From Schmidtea nova (taxonomy: Eukaryota), in assembly GCA_044892505.1 (NCBI GenBank), contig CM097882.1:100130001-100194000 (forward strand): DNA of 64,000 nucleotides. The letters run 5' to 3'. The translations under genes and the position numbers were made by a program. This document shows, one piece after another, positions 12,379-59,179 of the stretch (position 1 is the stretch's first letter; every line of letters starts with the position of its first letter). The notes under the pieces were generated by a model that made no database searches, was not told where the DNA came from, and was given only the letters and a program-made list of their open reading frames with translations.

Positions 12379-14875
12379 TGTGAGGATATTTAGACATGGT
12401 TACAAATAGACAAGCGTATCCAATGCCAAATATAGCGGAGATATTGGATAGATTGGAAGAAGCAAAACATTTTACGTCAATAGACTTGGGAAACGCATAT
12501 TATTAGGTTGAACTTGAAGAAAATTCAAAAGAAAAGACGGCATTTTCAACCACTACGGGCCAATATTGTTTCAACAGAATGCCATTTGGAATAGCGGTGG
12601 GGCCAGGAACATTTCAGGATTTAATGGGAAAAGTACTAGGCAACATAAAAGGTACAGTTGTTTATTTGGATGACATTTTAGTATTCACAGAGACAAAAGA
12701 GCAACATTATGCGGTTCTGAAAGAGGTACTAGGAAGAGTTAGACTAGCAGGGTTGAGAATAAACCCAGAAAAATGTCATATACTGGTTCGAGAACTAAAG
12801 TTCCTAGGGCACACTATAAACAAGGATAGTATACAAACAAACCCATCAAAATTAGAAGCAATAAAATCATTCCAGAAGCCGAAATGTATAAAGAATCTAA
12901 GGAGTTTTTTAGGGATATGTAACTATTATTGAAGGTTTATCAAAGACTATGCGAAGAAAGCTAGAACGTTGGAGGTATTATGTAGAAAAAACAATGTAAA
13001 ATTAATTTGGACAGAAAACTGCGAAAGGGCCTTCGAAGAAATTAAGAAAGCACTAACAGAATCCCCTATTTTAGGATACCCAGATTTTACAAGAGAGTTC
13101 ATCCTAGATACAAACGCCAGTTTTGATACAATTTGGGCTGTACTATCACAAAGAGATGATAATGGTTACGAAAAGGTTATAGAATATGGGTCACACGCGA
13201 TGAGTAGTCATGAAAAAGGGTGTTGTATTACGAGAAAAGATCTGCTTGCAATTTACTACTTTTGTCATCATTTTAATCACTACCTGTACGGCAAAAAATT
13301 TACGTTGAGAACGGATCACAAAGCAATCACGTTCATGCTATTCGCAAATAAGTCAATAACTGCGTAATTACAGACATGGACCAATCATCTCAGTAGTCTA
13401 GACATAAAATTAGAATAAAGAAAGGGAGTGAATCACGCAAATGCCGATGCACTGTCAAGAAGTACATGCGGGACTTGTACACAATGTCTCTTGAATCACG
13501 AGAATGCAAAGACCGAGAAAATGAAAACATTGCGTATAAACATGATAAAGAAAACTGAAAGTTGTAAATGGCAACAAGATGATGAAGAAATAAAAATAAA
13601 ATAAATAAAAATAAAATAAAAGGGTTATGCTGGAAATAGATATTGAAAGGAGGTGTAGTAACGACCAAGGAAAGAAAAATATGGATTCCAAAGAAAAAGA
13701 AACGGGAAATGATAAAAGAAATGCACGGATTACTATCACACACAGGAGCTGAAAAAGTGACAAAATATATAGCTGATAATTATGATATGAAGGATATAAA
13801 AGAATCGGTGAAAGAAACAATTAGAGCTTGTGAATCATGTCAAAGGACAAAGGTTGTTACGACAAAAACGAAGGAAGAGATAATTAAACTTAGCGCTGAT
13901 TAACCATGGGAGAAAGTATACATAGACATATGCGGGCCATTTCCAGAGACATTTAGAAAGAAAAAATATATTATATCAATAATTGATCAATATAGTAGAT
14001 ACATATCGTTGACAGCCGTAAATAAGCAGGATGAGAACACGATAAAGGAAACGATGAATAACAAATGGATTCTGAAATATGGAGCAACAAAAGAAATTCA
14101 CGTAAATTGTGGAAAAGCGTTTGAATAGAAGGTAATAAAAGATTTCACAGAATCAATGGGAATCACACTGTGTTTTTCGAGTCCGTATCATCATAATACA
14201 AATGTGAGTGTTGAAAGGCAATTTAGGACAATAAGAGATTATGTAAACGCGTCATTAAAAGAAGTTAATCGAACAAATTGGTCAGATATATTGTCAGAAA
14301 TTGAATTTACATTAAACGCAACATTTCAAAAGACAATTGGGAAGAGTCCTGCTGAAGTGGTATTTGGGAGGAAAATATTCAGAGAACGATGGTACAGTAA
14401 GAAACCGGAAGAGCATGCCATAGAAAAACCACAGGAGGAAATTGTCACTAGAAGAGAGTTTAAAATTGGAGATTCGGTACTAGTAAAAGTCGAAACTAGA
14501 TCCAAAGACAAAGACAGATACGAAGGCCCATACGAAGAGATTCAGAAGATACATGATAGACGATATGCGTTACGGGACGAAAATGGAATATTGATTCAAA
14601 GAAATGTAGAGAAAATGAAAGAATTTCTTAACTCTTTCCTATCCCGTGTCTATAGAAATATGACAAAAATAATTAACCATTCTATCCTCTGTCTGTAAAA
14701 AAATGACATTATTTTTGAATAGTTTATTTCCAATGCACTGTCGATTATATAATGACCAACTGTTTATAGAGTGATTATGACATTGCACTTTTTTGAACTT
14801 TTTTTGAAATTTTATTAGGATTGGAACGGGCGGATTCATAAAATAAAGAAGATAGGAAAGGGTTAAAGAAGGGGA
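12379..14875 (+). mobile_element. Decayed, internally deleted Ty3/Gypsy element (RT-RNase H-IN pseudogene)
   Basis: MPFG, YLDD, LDTNAS, LRTDH, H..H/C..C and VERQFRT motifs split by stops. A 24-bp LTR-start stub tgtgaggatatttagacatggtta (12379-12402) abuts RT directly. Confidence 0.9.
14861..14875 (+). promoter_or_regulatory. Polypurine tract of the decayed Gypsy element
   Basis: ggttaaagaagggga lies immediately before the TG of the 3' LTR at 14876. Confidence 0.7.
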
Positions 14876-22150: not shown

Positions 22151-22389
22151 AGTGATTTTCAAATATTTGTTTTTACCTATTAACTAATTATTTTATCAAA
22201 TTAATTTTGATAACAATAGAGTTCTTTCTGATGATGTGAAAAGTTTGTTTAAAAAAATTGATTTTTTATTTTGCACACTCCACTTCAATGTTTTTATAGA
22301 TGCTCGAAATTAATTTCAAGAGATTTATACTTGATTTTACTTGAAAATCAATTCTCTACAAGATGCAAAGAAATTTACATCGGAAGCGC

Positions 22390-24593: not shown

Positions 24594-25270
24594 AGTGCAC
24601 AGAGGGTTAAAAATCAAAATCAATATTATATAAAAATTTATGTACCATCTTGTAGAGAATTGATTTTCAAGTAAAATCAAGAATAAATCTCTTGGAAATA
24701 ACTTCGAGCATTTATAAAAACGTTGAGGTGCAGTGTGCAAAATAAAGAATCAATTCTTTTTAACAGAGTTTTCACATCATCAGATAGAACTGCTGGGATT
24801 ATGGGTGGGTTTTAAGTAATTCAAATAAACAATTAATCATACTAGGGATTCCGCGCCCATAACCATACATAACATGACTACTACACGCGTATGCCCTTGA
24901 CTATTCCCTACTAGTCAAGTTGGTACTGCATACGGTGGTGGAAAAATGATGGGCAGGTGAGCTTTGTCGCCAAAACTACTCCCCATTTATCTTCCCTCGG
25001 GTTCTTGCTGCCGATAGAAGGTCTTACGCATTTACATTCTATGGATGTTCGTTTCCTACTGAATTTTATACTACATATCCTTATGATCTATCACACGCTT
25101 TTCCCAATGACGCTCTCCCTCGCTGTTCTACAAGCCTACGAAAACTCTCGCTGCTAAGTAACGGTCGGTGTAGGTTTTACGATGCGATTTTTAGTTCTAC
25201 GAATTACTTATGTAGTCTTATTTTATTTAGTGAAATCACACGATGAGAGAAAAAATTTACACAGTAATAC

Positions 25271-25276
25271 TTTATT
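25271..25276 (-). terminator. Candidate polyadenylation signal in the LTR
   Basis: AATAAA on the minus strand ~45 nt after the LTR ORF-B stop; a similarly placed AATAAA exists in the diverged LTR (2080-2085). The AT-rich context weakens this. Confidence 0.4.
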
Positions 25277-25317
25277 AAAATAATAAAGACAGGTTGTTAT
25301 GTTACATGGAGATTTTC

Positions 25318-25902
25318 CTATTCAAACTCCAGGCTAATCTCCTGGATTAACTCTGCTTCGGTTAAGGAGTTCAGGTGGTGAATTTGTTCGTCCAGGCGCC
25401 TTGCAAATTCTCGGCGACGACGACGCTGTCGCGATCCCATTCGATGTTTTCGAAGCTGTGGGTTTATGACCGGTGCTGACGCTATTGTTCTCGGGGGATC
25501 ACTGGGAAAAATAGGCAAATCTTCCGTTGTAAGAGTGGGTGCCATGATGATTTCCTCTTCCGTCCCGCAAGCGACATCTTGGTGAGTGCATTGTATCCAG
25601 CGCTGAGCCGTGATCGGTCGGATTAGCGCTCGTAATTCGGAGTCGATGTAACTTCTTGTTACTGCGTTCAGGCAATTTCGGAGTTCTCGCTGGACGGCAT
25701 CCAGTTCCAATTTGGTTGTAGCCAATGCTTCCTGCACTCGCTCGAGTTTTTTCGACTGGTCCTTCATCTGTTCGGGCGAGAACCACTTCGCTTTCAATTC
25801 ATCATTGGCGACCGTGAGTCGCTTGATCTGTCGCTGCTGGTCCCTCAGCTTTCTCTCTTGAATTTGTCCCATGATTTTCTTCGAATTTTCTGAAGTCGGC
25901 AT
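25318..25902 (-). CDS. LTR ORF-B, 194 aa: N-terminal coiled coil, Arg-rich basic stretch
   Basis: ATG start, intact in both LTRs, protein-level homolog at 2192-2665, RQRRRRR motif. Confidence 0.8.
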   Translation of the reverse strand: MPTSENSKKIMGQIQERKLRDQQRQIKRLTVANDELKAKWFSPEQMKDQSKKLERVQEALATTKLELDAVQRELRNCLNAVTRSYIDSELRALIRPITAQRWIQCTHQDVACGTEEEIIMAPTLTTEDLPIFPSDPPRTIASAPVINPQLRKHRMGSRQRRRRREFARRLDEQIHHLNSLTEAELIQEISLEFE

Positions 25903-26218
25903 GTTGTCTGAAGATTATAACGATAAATTCACTGGAGGGCCTATCAACAATGTTATTTTATTTAAACAACTATTATTATTATTAAACGAGATGTATATTA
26001 ATGTTTTTAATTGTTGAGTTCTCTACAAAATTATTTACATATCTAATCATTGAAGACTCAAAAGGTTTATTGAACTAATTTTATATTAATAAATGAATTT
26101 CCTAATGACTATAACAACTACAATACTAAATCTACAGGACAACACTATTAACAAAACGAACATTTCAGAATTCTTTAAAACATTTATTTAACTTAAAAAC
26201 AGGCGGCCATTGATTCAG

Positions 26219-26695
26219 CTATTCATCCTCGGTCATTTTTCCTCGATACGAAAATACCGAGCGGATCTGCAAATTTGTATGGATTCCTGTGTTATTGGAC
26301 GAGGCCTGCTGGAAACGGATTCTCTCAGCTTCTCGGAGGGGTCGGATGGCTGTATTGAACTTGAACCCCAATTCCTTGAAGGTAGAGGCTGGAATGAACC
26401 CCCAATAAATGACACATCTCGGGAATCCACCTTTGTCCAACATCATGATGAACCAGGCGGCGTGCCATGATTCGTATTCCTCGTCTGGAATGATTGGCCA
26501 ACTAGCGCATCCCCGGTACCATACGTGGTGCCGTGGATGGTCCCATACTGTAAATGGACAGGCGGTTTCGAGCTCTCGGCGCCATGCCCACATCTTTTGG
26601 TGAATTTGCTGTAAAATCTCGAACGGAGCCGGCTTTAATGGGCTAACTCGGGCTCGTTCTTGTCGTTTTTTGATAGTGTATCTATGCTTAGCCAT
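26219..26695 (-). CDS. LTR ORF-A, 158 aa, unknown (Trp/His-rich)
   Basis: ATG start, intact in both LTRs, disrupted homolog at ~2880-3350. Confidence 0.75.
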   Translation of the reverse strand: MAKHRYTIKKRQERARVSPLKPAPFEILQQIHQKMWAWRRELETACPFTVWDHPRHHVWYRGCASWPIIPDEEYESWHAAWFIMMLDKGGFPRCVIYWGFIPASTFKELGFKFNTAIRPLREAERIRFQQASSNNTGIHTNLQIRSVFSYRGKMTEDE

Positions 26696-27782
26696 GATTC
26701 CAAAACGATGCTGAATTTTATAATAGTTACAATTTACATCAATAATTAATCATAGTAAATGTTATCTCTCATCGTGATTCCTTTATTATTTGCCTTCCCC
26801 TTAGACCTTAGCTGAAATCAAGAAAAAACTGTTGTTTGTTACAGTATGCATTACTCTCGTGTCTACTTAGATTTATCTGTTTATGATCAATTTGATAGAC
26901 GAAAAATTGATGATTTGTCTGCTTGGATTTTCAAAATATTGGTACCTCAAAACGGAAACTCTCTCCCGTCATGTATCCCTAGTTTATTCGAAAAAACGCT
27001 CTTTTGTACCAAACGCGGTCGACAAAATTTTCCTAAGGTTTATTAGACGTTTATTAAACAGCGGCGCTATGGTGAGGGTGAAAAATTGTGCCTCCTCCCG
27101 GTTAACAACTTCTTTCATATCTTTAAGCTTTATCAAAAAATTCTCGTCCCCTCTGTAGCTAAAATGATCAGAAAATAATTTCCCGGATTTGTTGGGTGTC
27201 CCATGTGCAAGTCTCAACCACTACTAATAAAATTGTGCTTTACTATTTATTACTTTACCGTGTGTGGAGCCCTCGAGCACCACGCCACGGACGGACACCT
27301 TGGGAACCTAAAGCTCCCAACGGCGCAAAATTAATATGATCATTATATATTTTAATGTTGAGTCTAATCACAATAACGTTTAATTCATATAACAAATTTC
27401 AACACATGAATGCATAAACACATAAATAATTAGATCAATAGATAAATGACAAAGCAAATGACACAATCATGAATAAAATAATACAGAAACCAAAATACCT
27501 AATTCGTCTGGGTTTGCTTCGATCGGTTCGTCTAGAATTCAAAGTCTATTTGATTAGTGAGCTAAATTTTACACTCTCAACTGACGTTGTAAGATTAGGT
27601 ATTAAGTCTGTTTTATCCAAAGTCTGATCAGTATTTATACTGATCAGTCTGATCTAGACTGACCAATCGGATTTGGCCGATTTCATGGTGGGTTTTAATT
27701 ATTGTTTTTGATTCTAATTAATTTTTATTTTTTAGATTGTATTCTTCCTTGGAGGTCCGGGTTTCAAAAACAATTATTCAAT

Positions 27783-28188
27783 AACAAGTACTTTTATTTG
27801 GTTTTAATTATTATTATTTGTATTTTATTTGTTTTTAGATGTCTCCTGGGCCCGTTAATATCTATAAATTCATTTATTTTTATTTATAGCTTGTACTTAG
27901 TTATTCTATATTTTTACTATATTATTCCTTTCTTTTAATAAATAAATATTCCCCTTTTTACCTTATTTTTCTCTTTTTTGTTTTAAACAAGTACTTTTAT
28001 TTGGTTTTAATTATTATTATTTGTATTTTATTTGTTTTTAGATGTCTCCTGGGCCCGTTAATATCTATAAATTCATTTATTTTTATTTATAGCTTGTACT
28101 TAGTTATTCTATATTTTTACTATATTATTCCTTTCTTTTAATAAATAAATATTCCCCTTTTTACCTTATTTTTCTCTTTTTTGTTTTA
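27783..28188. repeat. 203-bp tandem duplication in the U3 end of the LTR
   Basis: aacaagtacttttatttgg...ttttgtttta occurs at 27783 and 27986; the same duplication is in the other LTR (53109-53514). Confidence 0.9.
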
Positions 28189-28440
28189 ATTAATCTACTT
28201 TTATTTCATTTTTTTCTCTATTTGGCTGGCCCAACATCACTCGGGGACCCCTAAAATTGCGTCCCGCAATTAATTATACATTTACACCTATATCATCATA
28301 CATAAAAATTAAGCAGATAAATGTCAATTTACATATACACAAAGAATCACGTAAGGTGATAGATTTTATACGTAAGCACAAAGTCATATTATTGTTAAAT
28401 GTAAGTGGATCATACATAAAGTGAATGTAATATATCAGTT

Positions 28441-29013
28441 TTACACAAGCTCTTTGATTTCATGATTGGTATTGGATTGGATTGGGGTTCTTTCGCTGAT
28501 TGTTCGTAGTTCGTAGTGGCTTTGGATTCGGTTTAGGTGTTTTCTCATTCGCTTTTGGGTTCTGATGTCTTGTATTGTTGTTCGGTTCAGGATGACATGT
28601 TTTTGTTTTAAGATCTTCACTCGGTATGATGTTATGAGGATTGTGATCGCGATAATGGTCACGCTGAGTGCAAGGATTATTATAATTGCGATGATCCATT
28701 TTTCTTGATATTCTATCTCTGCTTGGGCTAAGCTTTTCATGGGTTCTCGACCTTCTTTTAGGGTTTTTCTGATTGTTTTCAATTTGATTCGATGTTCATA
28801 TAGGACCTGTTGAAATTTTTCATCGTTTGGGTTGTCTGATGTTATCTGTTGAAGTTGGGTGATTTCTTGTGTTGCTTCGCTGATTAGTTTATCTAGTTCT
28901 TCATAGGTTTTCTCGGGTAGGGCTCGTAGCTCCTTCTCTGTGAGTTGAAGATCTTCTCTTTGTAGGGTGATTGTTATTAGGTATAGGAATATCGGTATTC
29001 TGAGCTTTTTCAT
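28441..29013 (-). CDS. Accessory ORF, 190 aa, predicted type I membrane protein
   Basis: Signal-like MKKLRIPIFLYLITITLQ, helical/coiled-coil ectodomain, TM WIIAIIIILALSVTIIAITILI, basic tail. Confidence 0.8.
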   Translation of the reverse strand: MKKLRIPIFLYLITITLQREDLQLTEKELRALPEKTYEELDKLISEATQEITQLQQITSDNPNDEKFQQVLYEHRIKLKTIRKTLKEGREPMKSLAQAEIEYQEKWIIAIIIILALSVTIIAITILITSYRVKILKQKHVILNRTTIQDIRTQKRMRKHLNRIQSHYELRTISERTPIQSNTNHEIKELV

Positions 29014-29095
29014 ACTGTTTTCTTTACAGGTAGGTCAATACAATTTGATACTACATTTCATACAATTATTTACAAAAATATATTTTCCGCTTTAT

Positions 29096-30157
29096 TTACA
29101 CAATCGTCTCGTTTGGTTCGTAGAAACCTTCGTCCTGAGGTTCTACCTGGTTCGTGGGGAGTGGTATCCAAACAACCCTGCTCCTCCACATTTCGACTTC
29201 ATCTCGATACATGTGAGATATCTGGATCTCCTCGTCCAGCAAATATTCTAGGTAATTTGCTTGTTCTGTTAATGTTTCTATTTGCTTCTCTAATTCGATT
29301 ACTTTTGTCTTTTGTTCGTCTTCTTTCATCATTTTTGTTACGGCTGCCGTTGTACTTGTTTCTTTGGGTATTGCTAGTACTGTTACTCGTTTCTGTTTCA
29401 ATTCTTCGTTTTCTTTCATCAAATTCGTTAAATTTTCCTCATAACTTTGCTTCGCTTCCTTTAACCTTTCTCTGGTTCTTTTTAGCTCTATTTTCTTCTG
29501 GGTAATCACTCCTTGATAACCATTTATATCTCTCTTCATCTCTTCTTCTTTCTGATTCCATATTCCGGTGAGCATAGATTTCAGTTGTTCTTGATTAGCT
29601 AGTTCTTCTCCCATTCTTTGAACTTGATAGGTTAGTCCTTTAATTTTCTTTGCTTGTTCGCGGATAAATTGCTGTCTTTTTGTATTCCATCTTTTATTTA
29701 ACACTTCCTGGTTGATTTTTTGCTCTAACTCGTCTTTTAGTTCATCGATCTCTTTATATAACTTCCAATCATCACTATAAGCTGTCCTTTCTATTATTTC
29801 TCTAGCTTTTTCGTAAGATTCTTTCGCTTCTTTCTTCCAGTATCTTGCTTGTTCTGTAATCGAATACATCTTGTGTTCAGCTTCCATCTGCTGTCTGTCT
29901 CTTTCCTCTCGTCGCTCTTTCATCATTCTCTGGTAATATTCCTTTTGTTGTTGTAGCATTTTGTATACTTCTTCTATTTTTTCTCGACTTCTTTGACTTG
30001 ATCTTTCCGCTTCTTTTAATAATTCGGCTTGTCTCTCTATCTCCTCTTGCTTTCCATAATATGCATTGACCCATATTTCAATCTGTTCTAGATGATCGCT
30101 AATCGCTTCTGCTTGATGCATCGTAATTTCCTGTAAGCATACTTCGATATTTCCCAT
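29096..30157 (-). CDS. Accessory ORF, 353 aa, long coiled-coil protein
   Basis: ATG start, E/K/Q-rich heptads throughout, no globular motif recognised. Confidence 0.8.
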   Translation of the reverse strand: MGNIEVCLQEITMHQAEAISDHLEQIEIWVNAYYGKQEEIERQAELLKEAERSSQRSREKIEEVYKMLQQQKEYYQRMMKERREERDRQQMEAEHKMYSITEQARYWKKEAKESYEKAREIIERTAYSDDWKLYKEIDELKDELEQKINQEVLNKRWNTKRQQFIREQAKKIKGLTYQVQRMGEELANQEQLKSMLTGIWNQKEEEMKRDINGYQGVITQKKIELKRTRERLKEAKQSYEENLTNLMKENEELKQKRVTVLAIPKETSTTAAVTKMMKEDEQKTKVIELEKQIETLTEQANYLEYLLDEEIQISHMYRDEVEMWRSRVVWIPLPTNQVEPQDEGFYEPNETIV

Positions 30158-30272
30158 TGCTATAATTTCAAAAAAAAATTTTTTAATCGGTTTATATATC
30201 AGTTATTTTTTGTTTATATAATAATTTTTGGGTATTTAACTGTACATATTATTTACACGATCACTTCTCTTG

Positions 30273-31655
30273 TTACGTCAACCATTCTTTTCTATCCGCT
30301 TTCTCATTCCTTTCCATTTCTATGTATAGGGTGTCTGCATATAATCGTTCCCATAGGCTTTCTTTCGTTATAAACATTGGTTCTCCCGCTGCTAATCCAC
30401 ATTCTGTGGTTGGTTTCTCGCTCGTACTCGCATGTTTCTCTGTCTCAAAGAATTTTTCTACTGGTTTTGTTACACTTCTGATTCTAATGATGACTCCTAC
30501 TTTCAAGGGCCATTCTACTAGGTCGTCGTATTCTCCTTTACATAGCGAGAAAAATATTGACACATGTGTTCCTCGTCCTCTTCCGTCTCCATTTGGGTAT
30601 AGCTTCAATCTCACTTTAGCTCCGTTTCTCCATAAATAAAATGGTGGGCTTATTACTGCTGTTTTCGTCATATTTCTGGCCTCTGTTAATTTGTTTCTAA
30701 AATCTGTCACTTTCCACACATATGGTGCGATTGGTAACTTTTCCTCGGTATCCTGGGTGAGTTTGTTGTACTGGATTTTCATTCCTTTAGCCAGTTCTTC
30801 GATAGCTTTTATCTTTTCCTCCATCTTTTCTCGTGTTAGTTCGAATTGCTCTCTGGTTTCCAACAGTAGGTTTACCATTATCTTGTGTGACTCTATTTCT
30901 CTTTCTAATTTTTTGATTGTTTGTTCGGTTTCTTTTGTTGCTTCGTTTGTCATTTCCGCATGCTTTAGTAATGCTTCCTCCAGATGTTGTTTCATGGTTT
31001 TTTGCGTTCTTTTCTCCATACATCCCTGTTTGTTATAAGGACATTCCCTTGGTTTCTCCGTGCACACTTTCCAATGTTCTTGTAATTTTACTTCTACCGT
31101 TATCTCGCATTCGTTTGAACATATTCCTACATATTGTCTACATACTTTCTCCTCTTTTATATTCAGGTGTTCTTCTTCGATCTTTCTCCTCGTTTCTCGA
31201 GTTCCACAATATTCGCATAGACTTTCCTCTTCTTTACATTCATCTTTGTGCTGCTCTTTATTCTTTATAGTTATTTTTTGTTGGCATTTGTTACATTCAG
31301 TTCTCTTCTCTTCGCAGTTCTCCAGATGGTTCTCGAGATCGCGTATTTGTCCTTGCCATATACATGGTTGATTTATACATTCGGTTTTCGTGTTCATGAT
31401 TTCTCTCTGAGTTGCTCTATCTGGTCCGGTTTCTTCGAATTTTATTTGACCTTCTTTGCATTCTGGACATTCTGGTGGTCTTTTCATACTTAACTCGTGT
31501 ATGCATTTGGTACATACTCTGCATCCGCATAGGGTTTGTCTTGGTTTCAATATTATGTTTTTACAATTTACACAAGTGAGTCTCAGACTCCATTTCCTGT
31601 TCTCGGCTCTCAAAATTTCGATTATCCGCTCTTCGGCTTTTCCTTCTGTATTCAT
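30273..31655 (-). CDS. TRAF: Full-length intronless TRAF (RING, TRAF zinc fingers, coiled coil, MATH/TRAF-C), 460 aa
   Basis: RING CVNC..CGCRVC..C..CPEC; fingers such as CINQPCIWQGQIRDLENHLENC; TRAF-C YVWKVTDF..SPPFY..YPNGDGRGRGTHVSIF..GEYDDLVEWP. Confidence 0.95.
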   Translation of the reverse strand: MNTEGKAEERIIEILRAENRKWSLRLTCVNCKNIILKPRQTLCGCRVCTKCIHELSMKRPPECPECKEGQIKFEETGPDRATQREIMNTKTECINQPCIWQGQIRDLENHLENCEEKRTECNKCQQKITIKNKEQHKDECKEEESLCEYCGTRETRRKIEEEHLNIKEEKVCRQYVGICSNECEITVEVKLQEHWKVCTEKPRECPYNKQGCMEKRTQKTMKQHLEEALLKHAEMTNEATKETEQTIKKLEREIESHKIMVNLLLETREQFELTREKMEEKIKAIEELAKGMKIQYNKLTQDTEEKLPIAPYVWKVTDFRNKLTEARNMTKTAVISPPFYLWRNGAKVRLKLYPNGDGRGRGTHVSIFFSLCKGEYDDLVEWPLKVGVIIRIRSVTKPVEKFFETEKHASTSEKPTTECGLAAGEPMFITKESLWERLYADTLYIEMERNEKADRKEWLT

Positions 31656-31745
31656 TCTACAATGATATATACACTTGATTTGTTATCTATTTTTTGATTT
31701 TTCTTGTTTTTGTTTTACATATTTACAATTTTTCGCTTTATTTAT

Positions 31746-32102
31746 CTACGGCTCGTTTGTTGAATCTGGTTCTGGGTCGTTTTCTGATCTGTTTATTGCC
31801 CAATTTGTCCATCCATCCTCTGCTTCTTCTGTCTCTCCCATTGTTAAACGGTCTATCTCTATTGCTTGTCTCTGATTTATGTCGCTCATCACTTGATTCT
31901 CTCTGGTAAGTTGCGTTATCAATCTCTGTTGCTCCTCGATTCTGTGGAGTTGTTCAAAACTATTATTATAACTTTCGGATAACAAATTCTGTTTCTCAAT
32001 TAACTGATTTTGTAGTGAGTTGATTGTTCGTATTAACATGTCACACTGGGCTTTCCATCGCATAGCCATAGTAGTTTCTGCTATTTCTTCCTGTTCGTTC
32101 AT
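31746..32102 (-). CDS. Accessory ORF, 118 aa, coiled coil with acidic tail
   Basis: ATG start, Q/E-rich heptads, collinear with the other accessory ORFs and set between AT-rich spacers. Confidence 0.7.
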   Translation of the reverse strand: MNEQEEIAETTMAMRWKAQCDMLIRTINSLQNQLIEKQNLLSESYNNSFEQLHRIEEQQRLITQLTRENQVMSDINQRQAIEIDRLTMGETEEAEDGWTNWAINRSENDPEPDSTNEP

Positions 32103-32227: not shown

Positions 32228-35200
32228 CTATATCACCATCACTGTCTCTCCTTCGTATCGCTCTTCATCTTCTATTTGTCTCCAAAATTCTTTGCCTTTC
32301 GTCCTCCTTTGAAATTCTTTCTGTACTTCTTCCGGTAATTCTATACTGTAGTTCATAATCTTTATATCTGGCCAATGTGTTATTGGTTTCTTGTTGAATA
32401 CATCATATATCCATATTATTAATAATACTGTTATTACTGGAATAGTTGCTGCTAGTATTCCCAGACCAATTAGTTCTCTAACTTGTTTGTTTACGTCCAT
32501 CTTCGTAATTTCACTCTGGTTAATCATTGGTCCGTATTGTCCCTTTAGTTTATTTAGTAGTTGTTCTCGTTCTTGTTGTTTTCTTTTAACTTCTTTAATT
32601 ACTTCTTCCGGCGTCCATCTTGCGTAAGGGTCTATTACTACTTGTTCCGCGTCCATTTGTTTCGTTGTCTGACTTATTTCTTTAAATTCGAGTTTTCTCA
32701 CTTTCCCTTTGGACGTTGAGTTTACCGGTGTGTAGTACGTTTCGCATCTTTCCTGCTGATTTCCTAATATGTCCGTCTTTTCTACCGCACATATCTCGTA
32801 TTCGCTATTGAATTTCAGATTTCTGATACTTATTTCCTCTTTTCCTTTCACGTTTCCACAGTCTCGTGGCTGTCTTTCCCTTTGTTTCTGAACTATTACC
32901 CAACATATTTCTAACGTTTTATTGTCTATTCTCCATAGTATAAGAGTTGCTGTAGTATTCTTTTCGGTTCTTATTTGTATTTCTTGGTTTTTCTGTTGTC
33001 CATTAGGTTTAAAAGTAGTGGTATACCTCGTTTTTCCTTTGTTCCGTTGTCTTCTGCTTTTTCGCGTTGTCTTTCCAATTCTTGTTCTGGTGGGTGTTTT
33101 ATATATTTTGCATTCCAGTTCATTTACTGTTATTTTGTCGCTCTTCCTGATCAGGCATATTTCGTACGTTTGATTACTTTCTAACCCTTCTATCTGTATT
33201 GTGGTTGTTCCTCTGTTTGTTCGACATTGCGGCGGTGTATTCTGGTTTGTTTTCTTTTCCTGCTTCTTCCAGCATACGCCTTTGACGTCCGGTTCCATTC
33301 CGGTTAACTCTAACATTATAGTTGTTCTCCGTTTGGTGCGTTTATTTCTTCTTCCTCGTCGTATGAACTTTATTGTTTCCCCAGGTTGAAATGTTTTACA
33401 AATTGTCGTTCCTTTCTTGTGTCTTTCTTTTTCTAGTAAACATAGTTCATACGTCCTGTCTGCTTTTACTTCTGATATCTTGGTTACTTTATTTGTTTTC
33501 CTTTTCCGACTCGTCTTTATTTCGCTTACGCCAATTTCTTCGTTGCTTCTGGCCCAACACTTTGGGTTGGTGTTTTGGGTGTCGTTCATCTCTGTTACTG
33601 CCATTGTGTCAATGTCTATCCCTTCTTCTAACCGTTTTAACATTGTTAATATGAGTGCTAAACATAGTAATTCTGCTTGGTAGGTCACTCTTTCAGTTTC
33701 ATTTGTGGTTACTCTTACTTCGGGCCTGTCTATGGTAATTTGTATAGTTGGCGTTGTTCGTCTGTCTATTGTCTGAGGTTTCTTGTTTTTTGTTCCTTGT
33801 GTCTCTGTTCTTCCACACTTTCCTACGACATAGTCTCCTTTGGATGACTGCTGTACTGTTATGGTTACTTTGGGTGTTAGGTAATTTGCACATGCAATTG
33901 TCTTATGTGATCTCGGATCCTTTGGTTTCCGAACGGTGCACATTCTGTACCAAGTATCTAGCTCTAAGTCATCGATCTCTATGATTTCTTGTTCATATTC
34001 TGAGATCCTGCAATCCATTGGACTATTTTGTCCCGATATTTTGTCCTTTTTTGACCAACATACTCGTTCGATTCCTTTTGCGTTTCCAATTTGTATTGTC
34101 GCTTTTTCTTCACATATCATTCCTTGAGTTGGACTAATTAAGGTCATGATTACCGTTAGTAATAATAGTTCTGGTTTAAAGAATGGGTTTATTGTTTGTT
34201 TGTAGCCTGTTCTTTTTACTTCGTTTTTATTTTTATAGTTGTTGTTTCTTTGTTTCCCAAATTCATTGTTCTTATCATTTTTCTCTGTGTCCCTTCCTTT
34301 CTCTTCACTGTCCTCTTTATCTGATAACTCATGATCCTCTGGATTTTCTCGAGTACTATCGTCGTCGTTTCCTGTATTGTCACCTCCCCTTTGGTCGTTG
34401 AAAATGTCGTCCTCGACATTAACTGCTTCTATCATTTTTTCATACGTTATGGTTGTGAGTATACTTGCTTCGTATTCTTGTGTTACTGCCTGCTTAGGTA
34501 TTTCCTTATCGGTTAATTTACAATCTAGAATCTCTTTCTTGGCTTTTATCCAATTATTAAGGTACGTTTTCATTAGTTCTTTCCATTTGTCCGTACGTTC
34601 TGTTTCCTTTGGGTTGTTTGTGAATCGTAAATCTTTTCTTCTCATGAAGATGTCTATTATCTTTGGCCATTTGTTTATTATTAATGCACACTTTATATAC
34701 AAATTTTGGCCTTGTTCCATGCACTCGTTGATCCTGAATGCTGGTTCATTGGTGTTTGGGTTCATCCAATTGAGTATTGCTTCAGTTAGTTCAGCGTTAT
34801 GCATCATGGAATGTACGCTAGCTTTTTTAACTGTCCTTGTAAGGTATTCTATTTCCTCCTGATTTGTGATTGTTTTTATGAAATTTATCACCTCCCAATT
34901 GTGCGCTAACAACGCTACGTCTAGTATTGAGCTGTCTTTGTTAGTTCTTCCCATGAGTCCTGCACCTGCTTCGTACAGTTCCTGTAACACTCGGGTTTTT
35001 GTGTTCGCTCTTGCTGCGAATATCATGAGGGTATCTCCCTTTTTATCTTTCATGTTCATGTCACTTCCGCAATCTTGCATCAACCGTGCAATTTCGACTA
35101 CCCTCCTATCTTTTCCTGCTCGTAAGGCTCTATGTATTGGCAATACTCCATTCTTTGTTAATAAGAAAGTCACTGGCATTTCTCTTTTTATGATCATCAT

Positions 35201-38200
35201 ATCGTTTTCATTGTAAGTTCCTTCCGCATATGCGTGTACCTTTTCCACAATTGATCCGAGTATCTCCAGTGTATGTTTAGAATTCTCGAATTCTGGTAAT
35301 AGTTCTTTTGCTTTGTCCTGTATCGCATCTAACCTTTCTTGATATGGTACCTCTGCGCTGAAAAGTGGTGTAAATTTCCTTTTGCTTTCTCTTTCCTTTC
35401 GACCTAGGAATTGTTTGCATTTTTCGGGGTGGTTTAATATGTCTACTAGTTTGTCATACTCTTCCTCCACCGTTTTGTACTTATCTTGAAAATTGGATAT
35501 ATCTTTGTAAGTTATCGACTTGGTTAGCGATTTTGCACACCATTCCCTAATTTTCCTGAATAATGCTTCTTTTTCGCTTTCGAATTTACACTCCTCTTTG
35601 TTTTTGGAAATTGTGATCTTTCTTCTGTCCAATAATATTAACAGTGTTTTCTGATCACAAACTAATTTTAATAGGAATTGAAATAACGCGTTTTGTCCTT
35701 TACTGTATACTTCGTTTATATTTAATACCCATGTATCATTTTCGGATCTTTTCCATTTTATTAGCTTGCGTATTGTTTTGCAGTTACCGATTTTTATTGC
35801 CTCCTTGATTATATCACCTTTGATCAGTTCGTCTATTTCCCAAGTGGCCTTCTCGATTATTTGTTTGAGCATTATCTGATTTGAGCTCCATATTGCGTGA
35901 TTCAAGACTGTTTTGTTTTCTCTATCGCGTTCCGTCCAGTTGAAATCGGCATTTATCAAAAGGTCTATTATTGCTTTATCCGATTTGTAGATGGCTGCTA
36001 CCATTAATGGTGTTTCTTGTTCGCTATTCCCAAAACCAAGGTGTTGGTTTGTTTCCTTAGCGATTTTTAGAAATTCTTTTACTCTCTCTACTTCTCCCCA
36101 TTTTATGGCGTTATGTAATGCTGGTTGTCCTCCTATGTCTTCTAGTGAAAGTATTTCTGGAATCTTTTCCAGTAGTTCTGAAATGACTGGTTTTGTTGGT
36201 AGTCCCCTTGCGTAATCACTAATTATCGACTGAATATCTCTTAATATATCGTCTCTGACATGCCATTTTCCCATTATTTCTCTGGCTTTTAGTACAATTT
36301 CCTTGTTTCTTTTTTCTCGTTGATTGTTCTCTGCTTCGGTACTTTCATTGGTTGCTCTGAGCATATTCATTCTGGCTGTCTGGGATCTGGTTATTATTCG
36401 TTCTTCTGGCGCTGTGGTTATTGTCTTTGGTACTTTTTTACATCTGCATGTATTAACGTATATTGGTCGTATCAATGGTCGATTAACAAGTTTTACCTTC
36501 ACATTGTTTTCCTTTTTGTATATAACTTCGTAAGGGCCTTTTCCTGGTCTTTGTAGTTTTTTAACGGTTCCTGGTATTATTTCTGGGGTTTCTATCATCA
36601 CCCAATCTCCTGGTTTAAGATCATTTGTTTTAACATTTTTCTTTTGATCGTGTAGGTCCTTGTAACTTTCTTGGTAAAACTTTATGTTCAGTTCAGCTGT
36701 CTTCCATATCTCTTGCATTCGTTCTTTGAATTTGGTGACGTAATCATCTTCCTCCATATATTGAGACAAAGGTGGTTGATATTCAAGATCTATTGGCATA
36801 TTGCATTCCCTTCCATACATTAATTGAAATGGACTCAATTTTGTTGCTGCGTGTGTCGACATTCTGTATGCCATTAGACATAGCTTTACGTATTCATCCC
36901 AATCTGTTTGGTGTTTGCTTACATAATTGGATAACATTCGAATCAATGTGCCGTTAAATCTTTCCGTTTGTCCATTGGTTTGCGGATGATATGGTGACGT
37001 TCGTAATTTAGCTATTCTGAAGTAATTTGTTACTTCATCTAGTATTTCGCTCATAAAATTTGTTCCTTGATCTGTTAGTATTTGTTTCGGGGTTCCGTAT
37101 CGACAACATATTTCCTCTACTAAAATTCTTGCTACGGTCTTTGCTTTTTGATCCGGCATCGCAAATGCTTCAGGGAATTTAGTCAAATAATCCGTTATTA
37201 CCAATATATATTGATTCCCGTTTAAACTTTCTGGCAATGGTCCTATTACATCCATCGCAATGGTAGTCATTGGTTCCGCTGGTATTGGCATGGGTTTTAA
37301 GGGATTTTTCCATTTCTTCCCACTATCCTTTCTTGTGGCACAAGTTAAACAGTTCTTTATCCATTCCTTTACGTCTTCGTCCATTGTTGGCCAATAATAT
37401 TTCTGTCTCATACGATCTAATGTTTTCTTAGAGGACATGTGTCCTCCTAGCTTTCCGTCATGGTATTGAGTTATTATCTCTTTTCGTCTATTACTTGGCA
37501 GACACATTAATCGTTTTTCTCCATCTTGTATTAACAACCATCCTTTTTCTATTGTGTATCGGTGTTGGTATTTCCTCATGTGTTCTTTTAACTCCGCATT
37601 GTCTTCGAATACATCCATATTTCGTGAGCTTAGAAATTCTATGATGGGTTTTAGTTCTTTATCCTCTTGCTGATCTTTCTTTAACTCACTGAAATCCAAG
37701 TCCTCTGCTATCACTATGCATATTCTTTGCACTTCTGGGTCTGTTAGTTCTGGAAACGTTAATCTTGACATACAATCTGCGTTGGCATTCGCTTTTCCTG
37801 ATTTGAATTTTATATCTGGTGAATATTCTTGTAATTGCATCGCCCATCTCATCAACCTGCTGGATGTTTCCTTGTGTTGTCCTAGCCATACAAGTGGTTG
37901 ATGATCCGTGGTTATGCATATAACGTGTCCCCATAGTAGATATTTAAAGTGTTTTATTGCTAATATTATCGCCAATGCTTCTCTTTCCGTTACTGAATAA
38001 TTCTTCTCGTGTTTCTTGAATGTTCTGCTATAATATCCGATTACCCGCTCTTTTCCCTCGTCATCATATTGTCCTAACACTGCTCCTGCTGCATATCCAC
38101 TTGCGTCGGTTGCGAGTAAGAATGGCTTTTTAAAATCCGGGTGAACCAATATTGGTGCAGTTATTAACTTATCTCGTAATGTTTCGAAGGCTGTTTGTTG

Positions 38201-41200
38201 TTCGCTTCCCCATATGAACGATACGTCTTTCTTTACTAGCTCCTGGATTGGTTTTGCAATTCCTGCGTAATCCTTTATGAATTTTCTATAGTAACCGCAT
38301 AATCCGAGAAATTCTTGGATCTGCGTTATCGTCTTTGGTACTGGACATTCTTTTACTTTATCAATGTTTCTGGGATCTGGTTCCTTTCCTTTTGCGGACA
38401 CAATATGTCCTAAGAATGTCACTTTCTCTTTTGCCCAATCGCATTTCGATGGTTTGAGCTTGAGTTTCCATTGTCTCAATCTAACAAATACATCTCTGAT
38501 ATCTTGGATGTGTTGTTCAAATGTGCTTGAGTAGATCAGTAGGTCGTCAATGTAAACCATGCATTGTTTTATGCCGTGGGTAACGAAATTCATACATCTT
38601 TGAAATGATGCTGGCGCATTGGTTAGTCCGAATGGCATTTTCCTAAATTGGTACAAGTCTCTTCCGATAGTGAAAGCAGTTTTCTCTTTGTCTTCCTCCT
38701 TCATTTTAATTTGCCAGTATCCGCTTTTCAAATCCAATGATGTAAAATATGCCGCTCCTTGTAATGTCAATAACATCTCGTTGATGTCCGGTAATGGGTA
38801 GGTATCCCTTTTTGTAACTGCATTTAATCTCCGATAATCGATACAAAATCGTTGTGTTCCGTCTTTCTTTTTCACCATTACAACTGGGAATTGCCACGGT
38901 GAGCAGCTTGGTTCAATTACTTCTGCGTCTAGCATTTTCTGTACCTCTGCTTCTGCTACTGATTTTTGCGCTTCAGCTAACTTGTATGGTCTTAACGCAA
39001 TAGGCGTTTCGTCTGTTAGGGGAATCGTATGTAGTGTGACGTCGCATGTCCCTAGATCTAAATCGGATGCTGCGAATATATCTTTATATTCTATCAGTAA
39101 TCTTTCTAGCTGCTTCTTTTGATCCTCATTTAATAGTTGGCTATCAATGTTCCAAGTGGGTTCCTCCTCTTTTACTCCTTCTTTTATTGGTATTTCGATA
39201 TCCATCATTGGAGTTAGTTTACCTAGTCTTTCATTTTCATAAATTATTTTATCCTCTTCATCGAAATTTACTACAGTTATTGGGATTTCTCCGTTGTCAT
39301 TCGCACTCACTAATCCCCTTGCCATTGGCAACGACTTTCTCTTTTCAAATCTTTTACTGGGTTCAAAAATCATGTCACCTTCTATTGTAGGGTCTATTTT
39401 TACGAAGCATATTTTCTCTCTCCGTGCTGGTACGATTATTTGTTTCGAACTTGTTACTTTTGCTTCTATTGCGCATATCTGTCCTGTCCTATCCTTTAAT
39501 CTCATTGTTCCGAGGTCAATAACTATTTCTTTAAATAATGCTGGCATCAGATCCGTGCCTATAATGCATGGTACGCTCAGTGCTGGTATTACTGCTACGT
39601 ACGTTTCGATTTCCGTGTTTTGATGTTTTATCTTTACCCACCATCTTCCGGCAACTTCTACTACTTCTTTACTGCATGCTATTACGTGAACGTTGGTTCT
39701 CTCAATATCCCGTCTTTGTTCTTGTGGTATCCATTTTATATCTATTGCTGAGATATTTGCTCCTGTATCAATCATCGCTTCAATTTCCCTTCCGTTAATT
39801 TCGATTGTTGTAGTTAATACTGGACCGGTGTTTGATGACATTACTGCAATTGTATGTGAGTCCCCTTGCGGATCTACGCTTCTGCACCGTCTCGTTCTAT
39901 AGTCTTCTGGTATCATAGGATATATGTTTGTCATCGGCATCATTTGCATTGTATTTTGTCTCATCCCTGGTGTTGGTTCTTGGTACATAGTTGGTGGGGG
40001 TGCGTAACACTTCCACATTTCCGCTGGATTCTTTTCGACATACTGTGGTACTTGATTTTTAAATACTTGACCTCCTTCGTTATCATCATCATCGTCGTCA
40101 CTGGAATCGTCTTGGGTTCTGTACCCTTTCATTCTTTCCCATAGTCCTTTTCTCTCTTTCTTTAGTTGTTGTCTTGCTTGCTCGTTATTCATTATCTTTT
40201 TAAATTTTCGTCCCACCTCTTCATCGGTTCCTTTCATTTTTGCCAGTATTTTTAGGAGTCTCTTTATTCGGTGAATATCTTTTGAATGACCGTGTAATAC
40301 CATTGTTTTAGCCAAAAATGGTAAGAATCCTACCACCAATTTCCAATTTACTTTCTTTTCTCTTTTATAGATGTCAAAACAGGCTAACATTTGCGTTATT
40401 ATTACCCGTATTATTTGTATAATTAGTATAACACCAAGTATTCCTGCCATCATTTGTCCAAATATTAAAAATCTTCCCCACATCGCTTTCATCATGTTTT
40501 CCGTTGCCTTCTTAAAGTGGGCTGGTGACAATAATAATTCGTAATTTGGTCCACCTTGGTAATTTGTTCCTCCTGTTATTGTTACAATGCTGGATAACAC
40601 CGCTTCCCTTCTTGCTGGAAATAGTATGTTTTGTCTTGCTGCTTCTAAATCCTTTGCACTATAGAATCCCATATTGCTTACATCTACGTCTTTAAATTTT
40701 CTTCCTTTTGATAGTTGCATTAATTCAAATTCTCTTGGTGCTGGTACCTCTGTTCGTGACGGAAACATAACCCAATTTCCGTCTGGTTTTTGGTATAGTG
40801 GTCCATATGCGTTGCTGCAATTGAAAGGGTTTGGTTCGAAGCTTACTGGATTTATGATTCTTGTCACTGGTTGCACATATCTTACCTTCCCTTTGTATTC
40901 GATTTCTAGTTCGTTTGTACACTGCCCTGGTTGTAATTTTGTCATTGTCGCTACCTTCGCATTTGTCTTTTTACATATGTATACATACATGACCTCTCCG
41001 ACTACCCTTCCAAAATGACCTTCTCTTAATGGTAATAATGGCATTGCACTGTCCGGGTTTGTGATTGCTACCGCTAGTTTTGTCTTTAATATTTCCCTAT
41101 TTAATATGCAATCGTTGTTTATTAAATCGTAATACACTTTTTGTAGTGACGCTTGTCCTCTATGGAATAGAAAATCCATTTTATTGTTCATGTAAAGGTG

Positions 41201-47617: not shown

Positions 47618-48165
47618 CGGGATTACTTTTGTATACTCAATTTTCCTGTCTTATCGTGTTCCGATTCTTTTCTTCCTTAGTTGATTGGTTTGGTTTGATT
47701 GATTTATCTAAAATACAAATGTCACTTCAACGATACTCTATTGTTATCGTTGCGCTTTTATTCCCTTTTTACGGGACTTCTCATTACTGGGTTTCTATTA
47801 TTTTTCCCCATTCCCAGATTCCCCTTTATTTAAGTCTATTTAAATTATCTATATACTAGTCACAATTATCTATTTAGTCATAACAATTATCTATCGGTTA
47901 TTAAAATACATCAATTATTTTTCCCGCGGTCTCCCAATTTATTTGTCGTTCGAACGCTCTAATTCCCTGAGTCATTTGACTCGATTATTATTTTTTCATC
48001 TCTTTATCTTTCTCTCTGCTAGCCTCTAATTATTAATTCTGCCGGTCTTTCCGGTCAGCTCCTATTTCTCAATTCTACTTGCATGCATTATTTTAGGTCG
48101 CATAATCAGCTTTACTCGCATTTCTCAATTCCTGGTGCGCACTATTCTCATTATCGTCGACGATC

Positions 48166-48381
48166 ACAACTCTGGGCCTATATTCCCTCTGTTGTTATTT
48201 CTTATCACTTGCAACCCTGGGCCTATATTCCCTCCGTTGCTACTCAAACGATTGTAACCCTGGGCTTATATTCCCTCCGTTACTATCTTCCTTTAATTTT
48301 AAATAATTGCAACCCTGGGCCTATATTCCCTCCGTTGCTACTCAACAATTGTAACCCTGGGCCTATATTCCCTCCGTTACT
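48166..48381. repeat. Leader tandem array 1 (5 copies of a 26-bp core)
   Basis: aaccctgggcctatattccctccgtt at ~48168, 48213, 48256, 48311 and 48353. Confidence 0.9.
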
Positions 48382-48427
48382 ATATATCCGGATATCCCTA
48401 TTGGCTCCTTTGGCCTCTAATTAATAT

Positions 48428-48592
48428 CAATTATCTCAAATGGCTCTTATGGCCTCAAATTCATATCTCAACTATCTCAAATGGCTCTATTGGCCTTAAA
48501 TTCATATCTCAATTATCTCAAATGGCTCTATTGGCCTTAAATTCATATCTCAATTATCTCAAATGGCTCTATTGGCCTTAAATCATATCTCT
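48428..48592. repeat. Leader tandem array 2 (4 x 41 bp)
   Basis: atctcaaatggctctattggccttaaattcatatctcaatt starting at 48433, 48474, 48515 and 48556. Confidence 0.92.
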
Positions 48593-48635
48593 CAATAACG
48601 CCTAGCTAGGTCATTCAATATGGCTCTTTGGCCTC

Positions 48636-48851
48636 AACCCTTTGTTTCAAGGGACAAACCGCTGATAACCCTTTGTTTCAAGGGACAAATTCTAATAACC
48701 CTTTGTTTCAAGGGACAACCCGCTGATAACCCTTTGTTTCAAGGGACAAATTCTAATAACCCTTTGTTTCAAGGGACAACCCGCTGATAACCCTTTGTTT
48801 CAAGGGACAAATTCTAATAACCCTTTGTTTCAAGGGACAACCCGCTGATAA
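48636..48851. repeat. Leader tandem array 3 (7 hairpin units of alternating 31/30 bp; 61-bp higher-order unit)
   Basis: aaccctttgtttcaagggacaa at 48636, 48667, 48697, 48728, 48758, 48789 and 48819; ccctt/aaggg is an internal inverted repeat. Confidence 0.93.
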
Positions 48852-50092: not shown

Positions 50093-50110
50093 ATCCCGGC
50101 TGAGCCCCCA
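50093..50110 (-). promoter_or_regulatory. Primer-binding site, tRNA-Pro
   Basis: Minus strand TGGGGGCTCAGCCGGGAT lies 6 nt inside the 5' LTR boundary and matches 16/18 of the MLV tRNA-Pro PBS TGGGGGCTCGTCCGGGAT. Confidence 0.88.
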
Positions 50111-59170: not shown

Positions 59171-59179
59171 CACTTGATA

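Follow-up and report, generated by a model that had tools for sequence, protein, structure and literature searches.

Long terminal repeats (LTRs) ordinarily hold just control signals, and genes encoded in the LTR or in its U3 part are rare, the examples being sag of MMTV and the overlap of HIV nef. In MMTV, the whole sag gene lies within the LTR (PMC11998498). Additional ORFs have been reported in LTR retrotransposons of plants and rotifers, where they are situated internally, in most cases after pol and ahead of the 3′ LTR, and are often antisense (PMC7264820). Another LTR-retrotransposon-encoded protein, CERV of Cer1, has been described as carrying both a zipper and a nuclear-localization signal, and export of the genome depends on it (PMC10309623).

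In dugesiid planarians, the Burro/GYPSM1 elements encode a polyprotein of ~5,000 aa, the described architecture of which matches that of the element analyzed here (PMC6431247). Gene content is reported to vary among Burro families; features associated with them are long LTRs, an internal region of more than 20 kb, a single polyprotein of ~4,900-5,100 aa, a MATH/TRAF domain in the latter or in an accessory ORF, ubiquitin-like, BCL2-like, and dUTPase-like motifs in the polyprotein and, in Burro1, a BIR-containing IAP gene. The elements are reported to be abundant and PIWI-controlled, BURRO1 being a PIWI target (PMC6431247, PMC8532177). The titles and abstract openings covered by our literature search contain no account of genes internal to Burro LTRs, which the primary Burro papers or the Repbase GYPSM1 entry may show.

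Structure of the Element

The window, that is, the whole 64-kb stretch of DNA analyzed, contains on its minus strand an element of 28,772 bp, composed of an internal region of 21,880 bp and two LTRs of 3,446 bp each. The 3′ LTR of this giant gypsy element (24791-28236, minus strand) is letter-identical to the 5′ LTR (50117-53562, minus strand), pairwise comparison giving 0 mismatches over 3,446 bp. Both LTRs have TG..CA termini, and the element is flanked by a 4-bp target duplication, GAAC, at 24787-24790 and 53563-53566. The identity of the LTRs, together with these ends and the target duplication, indicates that the insertion is very recent. Six nucleotides past the 5′ LTR, at 50093-50110 (minus strand), lies an 18-mer beginning with TGG which resembles a primer-binding site and which may be comparable to a tRNA-Pro primer site; no tRNA gene is present within the 64-kb window.

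Between the LTRs there are one polyprotein and five accessory ORFs, all of them on the same strand as the two LTR-internal ORFs, termed ORF-A and ORF-B, that are described below. The polyprotein (4,987 aa; 32228-47191, minus strand) was delimited from the ORF list and Pfam, and has the order Gag-Env-PR-RT-RH-IN-ankyrin. Its start matches Retrotrans_gag (PF03732) with E 9e-5, just under the curated cut-off, and contains three CCHC zinc knuckles. A Monjiviricetes fusion glycoprotein (PF24664, E 1e-67) spans residues 1935-2276, in frame ahead of the protease (2461), and is followed, as judged by Pfam, by PR-RT-RH-IN in the gypsy-type order and by ankyrin repeats. When excised segments of the polyprotein were compared with Pfam, Ubiquitin_4 (E 0.036) and Bcl-2 (E 0.094) were obtained, both below the cut-off, and no match to a dUTPase. 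Four accessory ORFs (118, 460, 353, and 190 aa) follow pol at 28441-32102 (minus strand), separated by 82-125 nt, the 460-aa ORF being a TRAF/MATH protein (PF22486, E 2e-21). The fifth, a RING-finger ORF of 153 aa (49327-49788, minus strand; PF13920, E 6.7e-12), is located between the primer site and gag. The latter consists of the RING alone, and none of the eight element ORFs scanned with Pfam contains a BIR domain; because of this, the element is not Burro1 itself. Assigned by its architecture rather than by a reference sequence, it appears to be a Burro-like giant gypsy element, an architecture that also points to a planarian host.

Two ORFs Within the LTR and Their Diverged Homologs

A first-pass annotation of this DNA had reported two ATG-started ORFs, of 158 and 194 aa, that are duplicated with the LTR. 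Both are found, repeated letter for letter: ORF-A (158 aa) at 26695-26219 (minus strand; LTR positions 1542-2018), with its second copy at 52021-51545, and ORF-B (194 aa) at 25902-25318 (minus strand; LTR positions 2335-2919), with its second copy at 51228-50644. The whole of both reading frames lies within the LTR, on the gag-pol strand. When the LTR was shuffled, one ATG-started ORF of at least 158 aa arose in 2 of 1000 shuffles, and two such ORFs in 0 of 1000. Rfam gives no match in the LTR.

A second LTR in the window, decayed and belonging to a distant family, extends from 1657, where it has a TG..CA end, to about 4250 (minus strand). It contains homologs of both ORFs, that of ORF-A at 3373-2838 (minus strand, ATG at 3373) and that of ORF-B at 2665-2108 (minus strand, ATG at 2665). 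Their conserved order, already noted in the first-pass annotation, and their strand are borne out by tblastn, in which ORF-A aligns with 3263-2850 (E 2e-19, 31%) and ORF-B with 2656-2135 (E 5e-26, 34%). Upon codon shuffling, the z scores against the homologs are of 37 for ORF-A and 34 for ORF-B, and 0 of 500 shuffles come near the real score. The motifs listed in that annotation are present in both families, apart from two slips in spacing: NDEL...WF and WP...DEEY each contain three gap residues.

Both homologs are broken, a point absent from the first-pass annotation. In that of ORF-A, the frame shifts near 3263 and is interrupted by three stops (at the codons that begin at 3212, 3080, and 2897); in that of ORF-B, the end of which is at 2108, there is a single in-frame stop (2194-2192). 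The 207-aa ORF at 2192-2815 includes ~50 codons of intergenic DNA before the ATG that aligns with the ORF-B start. The aligned frame of the decayed ORF-A homolog contains 3 stops vs 6-11 in the other five frames; in that of the ORF-B homolog there are 2, one of them being the natural end, vs 7-15 in the other frames.

Homology between the LTR families reaches beyond the ORFs. Over its final 527 nt, the intact LTR aligns with the decayed copy as far as the terminal base of the latter at 1657 (z of 12.8 vs 60 shuffles), a stretch which includes a terminal non-coding block common to both families (24791-25030, minus strand; 68% over 173 nt), with a shared hairpin near 24960-24977. As the LTR terminus is homologous to the last base, the ORFs are parts of the LTR and not a nested insert. 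On the far side of the decayed LTR, a weak alignment to the intact LTR reaches about 4250; its far end and its target duplication were looked for and not found. A third ORF was considered in the terminal block and rejected, the block having no ATG-started frame and the indels between families being non-triplet. An apparent small inversion between the LTR families is not significant, 30 of 100 shuffles reaching it. No Burro internal domain stands beside the decayed LTR, and the other pol matches in the window belong to unrelated gypsy elements (24-38%).

Evidence for Past Selection on Both Reading Frames

ORF-A and its homolog have 43 identical residues over 132 aligned sense codons, and ORF-B and its homolog 63 over 178. 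At codon positions 1, 2, and 3, identity is of 0.49, 0.59, and 0.39 for ORF-A, and of 0.51, 0.59, and 0.34 for ORF-B. Synonymous sites are saturated, with pS values of 0.79 (ORF-A) and 0.82 (ORF-B), and pN, which is inflated by the decay of the second copy, is of 0.43 for both ORFs. The ratio pN/pS is thus ~0.5 (bootstrap range 0.43-0.68 for ORF-A and 0.44-0.63 for ORF-B), an estimate that rests on one pair of which one member is dead; as dS is saturated, it does not represent a true dN/dS. When the DNA was aligned blind to frame, codon positions 1 and 2 were identical in 394 of 670 cases vs 147 of 332 for position 3 (p = 1.6e-5).

The comparison of this one pair supports that both frames were in the past long under purifying selection. 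ORF-A and ORF-B are very probably, as judged from the sequences, true accessory genes that have been in the LTR since before the two LTR families split; as they lie inside the repeat, each insertion doubles them.

Base composition sets this part of the LTR apart. GC at third codon positions (GC3) is of 0.53 in ORF-A and ORF-B (187/352) vs 0.34 in the six internal ORFs (2130/6261; p = 1e-12), and none of 121 windows of 158 codons along the polyprotein exceeds 0.44. The diverged homologs have a GC3 of 0.48 (142/297). The difference has therefore outlasted synonymous saturation, and represents a lasting contrast of this LTR segment with the A-rich interior of the element.

Homolog Searches and Protein Predictions

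Profile and structure searches, which the first-pass annotation had proposed as a check, yielded no homolog of ORF-A or ORF-B in any library, the model used for ORF-A being poor. Pfam has no family for either ORF at E 0.1, the best fragment being at E 0.015, below the cut-off, and it has no match for residues 59-115 of ORF-B or for the homologous stretch. No homolog is present in PHROGs (best E 0.075), the PDB sequences show no significant match (best E 0.036, a coiled coil), and the ESM Atlas contains nothing at 0.9. A word-index protein search limited to near lengths retained 0 of 8 candidates for ORF-A and 0 of 306 for ORF-B, HMMER, run with a two-sequence ORF-A profile against 1.84 billion representatives, gave 0 matches, and the ORF-B model had no match under E 0.7 among viral structures. 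Exact look-up in the protein collection recovered 0 of 8 element proteins. The element RT-RNase H, used as a control at near lengths only, has no match above 52% (best 51-52%) among the best 120 of 3,492 matches. As the element family is unsampled in the protein collection, blank searches for ORF-A and ORF-B say little on novelty. Of the earlier claim of purifying selection on two novel proteins, selection is sustained for one pair, and novelty is only weakly tested.

ORF-A is predicted to be soluble; its N-terminus is basic and its core is rich in aromatic residues. The AlphaFold models of both ORFs were built from two-sequence alignments, and that of ORF-A is unusable (pLDDT 40), so fold searches with it (best Z 4.1, best E 0.22) mean little. 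A likeness of ORF-A to the ubiquitin-conjugating fold, seen by eye, received no support from Pfam or fold search and was dropped. Neither ORF-A nor ORF-B contains a membrane segment, the top hydropathy over 19 residues being 0.87 and 0.41, respectively.

ORF-B is laid out as a coiled coil at about residues 15-84, with Leu 53, 60, 67, and 74 in heptad spacing, a conserved RP.T.QRW block, a Pro-rich linker, an Arg-rich stretch (151-169), and a Leu-rich tail. Conservation is concentrated in the first 105 codons, where the N-terminal coiled coil is located (43/101 identical). AlphaFold models residues 4-87 as a long helix. Residues 1-112 were modeled as a homodimer that is parallel and in register over 15-84, with a score of 0.59, the best of 3 controls scoring 0.03. 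At least 92% of contacts agree between dimer runs, and pLDDT is at least 78. Among microbial controls, the mark applied to dimers is attained by 21 of 30 one-chain pairs of solved structure vs 0 of 23 single chains; among eukaryotic ones, by 17 of 29 pairs (7/16 in animals; 1/7 without an older solved relative) vs 0 of 30 single chains. Interface positions 26, 29, 33, 36, 56, 67, 70, 74, and 77 are invariant between families. The model supports that ORF-B dimerizes via a leucine zipper, a prediction that may have passed owing to similarity with zippers of solved structure; coiled coils readily lend themselves to modeling, and the dimer model is silent on RNA binding.

In the bZIP consensus, a basic region with an invariant Asn and Arg directly precedes the zipper. 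Inspection of ORF-B did not reveal such a region before its zipper, and there is no bZIP Pfam match. The Arg-rich stretch, previously annotated as Rev/Tat-like, is real (9 R/K in the 15 residues 151-165), but its basic character alone is kept in the other family; it sits in the less conserved half of the protein, and a plain nuclear-localization signal would account for it equally well. The Leu-rich tail follows the basic stretch in both families and, as judged by eye, might be likened to an export signal.

Candidate Expression Signals

The spacer between ORF-A and ORF-B (25903-26218, minus strand) is AT-rich and 316 nt long. Within it, an AATAAA at 26188 has a GT-rich tract behind it, and a CAG lies 5 nt before the ATG of ORF-B. 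AATAAA is found 33 nt past the stop of ORF-A; it is also found 44 nt past that of ORF-B, the last two sense-strand AATAAA hexamers of the LTR (25222-25276, minus strand) lying just past this ORF. The decayed copy has AATAAA after the ORF-A homolog (2820), and also at 2085 and 2011. Considering all intact ORFs, A(A/T)TAAA occurs within 90 nt past the stop in six of eight.

A YAG trinucleotide lies 1-3 nt before the ATG in each of the four post-pol accessory ORFs, and within 5 nt of it in six of the seven accessory ORFs, the exception being ORF-A (15 nt). The background, measured as 282/2089 ATGs in the window, 7/76 non-coding ATGs of the element and 23/152 internal Met codons, gives p ~4e-5, for a pattern that was noticed post hoc and with a 5-nt cut-off chosen on the same data. 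In the decayed LTR, YAG lies 3 nt before the start of the ORF-A homolog, and none is found within 35 nt of that of the ORF-B homolog. The heptamer TGTAAAT occurs 11 times in sense and 0 times in antisense in the 3,000 non-coding bases after pol vs 19 times in 34,186 host bases, both strands considered; the decayed LTR contains none. In S. mediterranea, SL trans-splicing has been reported, and flatworm operons are described with gaps of similar size (PMC12582326); the titles and abstract openings searched by us contain no report of a trans-spliced LTR-element operon.

The candidate promoter of the LTR is located at 27632-27671 (minus strand), and comprises ATTGG (27667) and, within an 11-bp inverted repeat, TATAAATA (27639). 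An A-over-T skew that marks the LTR start ends at LTR position 566 (27671), with a 2dlnL of 42, or of 30 when one tandem-repeat copy is left out. This repeat, a 203-bp tandem duplication (27783-28206, minus strand), lies at the 5′ end of the LTR, in an enhancer-like U3 position. The candidate core matches the decayed copy weakly, at 4066, 11 of 200 block shuffles reaching the match; the match of the wider region is reached by 9 of 100 block shuffles when scoring is strict and, when it is lax, by none of 40 plain shuffles. Both LTR families have A(A/T)TAAA 252-255 nt beyond the promoter core, past a T-rich tract. There is no skew change in the decayed LTR (2dlnL 3.5).

Discussion

Our best overall explanation, to which we assign a probability of roughly 0.45, is that the LTR bears accessory genes which are processed in an operon-like manner from an upstream promoter and which encode nuclear regulators of RNA. 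Since an acceptor-like YAG precedes the ATG and a poly(A) signal follows the stop, as in the other small ORFs, we lean slightly to the idea that ORF-A and ORF-B would be cut out as single-gene mRNAs from a gag-pol-strand transcript, by SL trans-splicing or by cis-splicing. Several poly(A) and acceptor sites within the full-length RNA would then have to be bypassed, and this RNA would need protection from processing. Tentatively, ORF-B, as a zipper dimer with a basic, Leu-rich tail, might act in the nucleus on element RNA, protecting or exporting the unprocessed genome by analogy with Rev, Rem, and the CERV protein of Cer1; for ORF-A, the idea of another regulator in the nucleus, or of a factor that counteracts silencing, is somewhat more doubtful. 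We consider it unlikely that all details of the following version hold together: an LTR that is a two-gene operon, with its promoter near position 600, an R/U5 of 2.8 kb and SL trans-splicing along with six other cistrons, in which ORF-B would act as a switch by which the 25-kb genome evades such processing.

Both ORFs are downstream of the best promoter candidate, which would place them in R or U5, as the first two cistrons, with the LTR promoter ~950 nt upstream of ORF-A; we regard this position as slightly more likely to be true than false. For the same reason, the analogy with U3-encoded sag and nef may be wrong on position. As the last poly(A) hexamers (25276, 25227) directly follow ORF-B, the same genes could instead be in a 3-kb U3, as is MMTV sag, with transcription starting just past ORF-B, a short R, and ORF-A and ORF-B as the last accessory cistrons, expressed mainly from the 3′ LTR. 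U5 would then be of ordinary size (~430-480 nt), which the conserved and structured terminal block fits; the decayed copy has TATAAATAAA at 2089, and the four other post-pol accessory ORFs run toward the LTR on the same strand. We nevertheless find the U3 placement rather doubtful: from the ORF-B stop to the last hexamers the intact LTR has no clear TATA, and the tandem duplication, the TATA, and the end of the skew are all grouped within LTR positions 30-600. The TATAAAA at 25070 is followed by no later canonical poly(A) hexamer and is not aligned with the TATA of the decayed copy at 1994; its position not being conserved there, it was rejected as a promoter.

As to function, the ORFs might have none, being either coding DNA that was captured and travels passively with the LTR, or a mobile element nested in it. 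The second copy is indeed broken and the libraries searched gave no homolog outside the window, but this brand-new insertion keeps both frames intact although synonymous divergence from the other family has reached saturation, and the deficit at position 3 persists in the frame-blind alignment. Furthermore, order, strand, poly(A) hexamers, and LTR terminus are common to both families. The codon analysis largely refutes this reading, which we hold to be very improbable. Foamy-virus Tas and the bZIP-type regulators of HTLV offer a role comparison for ORF-B as a DNA-binding LTR transactivator, in which the zipper dimer would set the RP.T.QRW helix on DNA. The predicted parallel dimer agrees with such a role, and so does the fact that the most conserved block of ORF-B follows the zipper, a block that to us recalls the recognition helix of a helix-turn-helix, while the candidate promoter offers an 11-bp inverted repeat. 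The role is unlikely, however, taking into account that inspection shows no bZIP basic region before the zipper and that residues 59-115, which have no Pfam match, are modeled at pLDDT below 60. A less remote alternative is that both proteins are directed at the host, as anti-silencing factors (piRNA/chromatin) or as effectors of cell survival, like the TRAF, RING, BCL2-like, and ubiquitin-like cargo of Burro. The remaining cargo is apoptosis and ubiquitin themed (PMC6431247), BURRO1 is reported as a PIWI target (PMC8532177), and an IAP of Burro1 reportedly has a protective effect on stem cells (Lee et al. 2026, via PMC13465017). The GC3 of ORF-A and ORF-B is also unlike that of the six internal ORFs, as might be expected of captured genes, but it differs in both families despite saturation and so is not the mere trace of a recent capture. 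Pfam, PDB sequences, and protein collections moreover show no match to a host family. We regard host-directed roles as an appreciable possibility that falls short of even odds. Our estimates for these readings cover different layers and are not expected to sum to one.

Annotation treats LTRs as non-coding and regards a solo LTR as dead. If a gypsy-type LTR holds two ancient genes under selection, recombination to a solo LTR would leave a coding unit in place, and a lone leftover LTR might make proteins. One Burro cargo gene reportedly contributes to regeneration (Lee et al. 2026, via PMC13465017). If the ORFs are downstream of the promoter, reverse transcription would begin with ~2.8 kb of strong-stop DNA, and the element would have to reconcile operon-style processing with a full-length genome. 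If the LTR were in fact a two-gene operon, every 3′ or solo LTR would be a free-standing cassette for two trans regulators of the family, and possibly of RNA processing by the host in its stem cells.

Comparison With Known Systems

The likeness to Burro/GYPSM1 comprises a length of ~29 kb, a Gag with three CCHC knuckles, a mononegavirus-type fusion protein before PR-RT-RH-IN, ankyrin repeats, and TRAF/MATH and RING ORFs (PMC6431247). The TRAF ORF follows pol here and is upstream in the described D. tigrina element, and the consulted part of the published description makes no mention of LTR-internal ORFs (PMC6431247). With MMTV sag, ORF-A and ORF-B have in common that the gene is internal to the LTR, is doubled with it and is kept under selection (PMC11998498). 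Sag is, however, a single type II membrane protein of a retrovirus, whereas the present LTR belongs to a gypsy-type element and encodes two proteins predicted to be soluble (PMC11998498). In addition, each gene has here its own poly(A) signal and is possibly downstream of the promoter, and no sequence likeness to Sag was found for either.

ORF-B resembles CERV, Rev, and Rem in its predicted zipper oligomer region, its basic stretch, and its Leu-rich tail, and its element likewise has to bring RNA out of the nucleus before it is processed (PMC10309623, PMC11998498). It has no homology to them, and differs in location: CERV shares exons with gag (PMC10309623), and Rem overlaps env (PMC11998498). 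Rev overlaps env as well, and none of the three is known to be located in an LTR. Like the additional ORFs reported in plant and rotifer LTR retrotransposons, ORF-A and ORF-B are conserved, of obscure origin and without match outside elements (PMC7264820); in contrast to these, they lie on the sense strand and inside the LTR (PMC7264820).

Insertion site and LTR borders

Besides the Burro-like element, the window contains other mobile-element remnants, located at 900-1500, 12390-14700, 58435-60214 and 62042-64000. They include a mariner-like transposase, RT/endonuclease-like and hAT-like ORFs (all labelled by eye) and two pol fragments of ordinary gypsy type. As one arm of a 146-nt inverted repeat (22220-22365 and 24646-24791) touches the LTR end, the Burro-like element seems to have inserted within another repeat.

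At the other border of the 3′ LTR (28237-28260, minus strand), no purine-only tract was found 5′ of the LTR, its place being taken by a short G4-T-C4 palindrome; hence, plus-strand priming of the element may be unusual. Within the LTR, the candidate TATA of the proposed promoter is enclosed by a perfect 11-bp inverted repeat (27628-27651), flanked in turn by repeated GATCAGACT words. The terminal block common to this LTR and to the diverged LTR, a decayed copy from a distant family, includes in each of them a matching hairpin (24948-24980 and 1818-1850, minus strand) in which two double base-pair changes between the families were recognized by eye, from two sequences.

Leader, polyprotein and accessory ORFs

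The 2.1-kb leader preceding gag includes three adjoining tandem arrays (48150-48852) with units of about 43, 41 and 30/31 nt. TATA-like boxes lie on the minus strand both ahead of the RING ORF (49870-49830, with CAGT about 25 nt further on) and after it (49195-49180), and are possible internal promoters.

The final approximately 1,000 aa of the polyprotein (32228-35000, minus strand) comprise repeated Cys-bearing blocks and a C-terminal hydrophobic stretch. This part, for which Pfam gave no match, may represent a second surface protein. Neither the 190-aa nor the 353-aa accessory ORF (both in 28441-30157, minus strand) matched Pfam above cut-off; the latter is coiled-coil-like, and the former shows by eye two hydrophobic stretches, likely a signal and a membrane segment.

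When the accessory ORF starts at 49788, 32102, 31655, 30157, 29013, 26695 and 25902 (minus strand) were checked, a splice-acceptor-like YAG was found immediately 5′ of the ATG in nearly all of them. Together with the short, AT-rich spacers, this makes an operon-like arrangement for a retroelement. The motif TGTAAAT, of which the diverged LTR contains no copy, occurs 11 times on the sense strand in the non-coding DNA of 32212-25036 (minus strand), and is found there 16-22 nt 3′ of four internal stops. It is similar to Pumilio/CFIm or forkhead sites.
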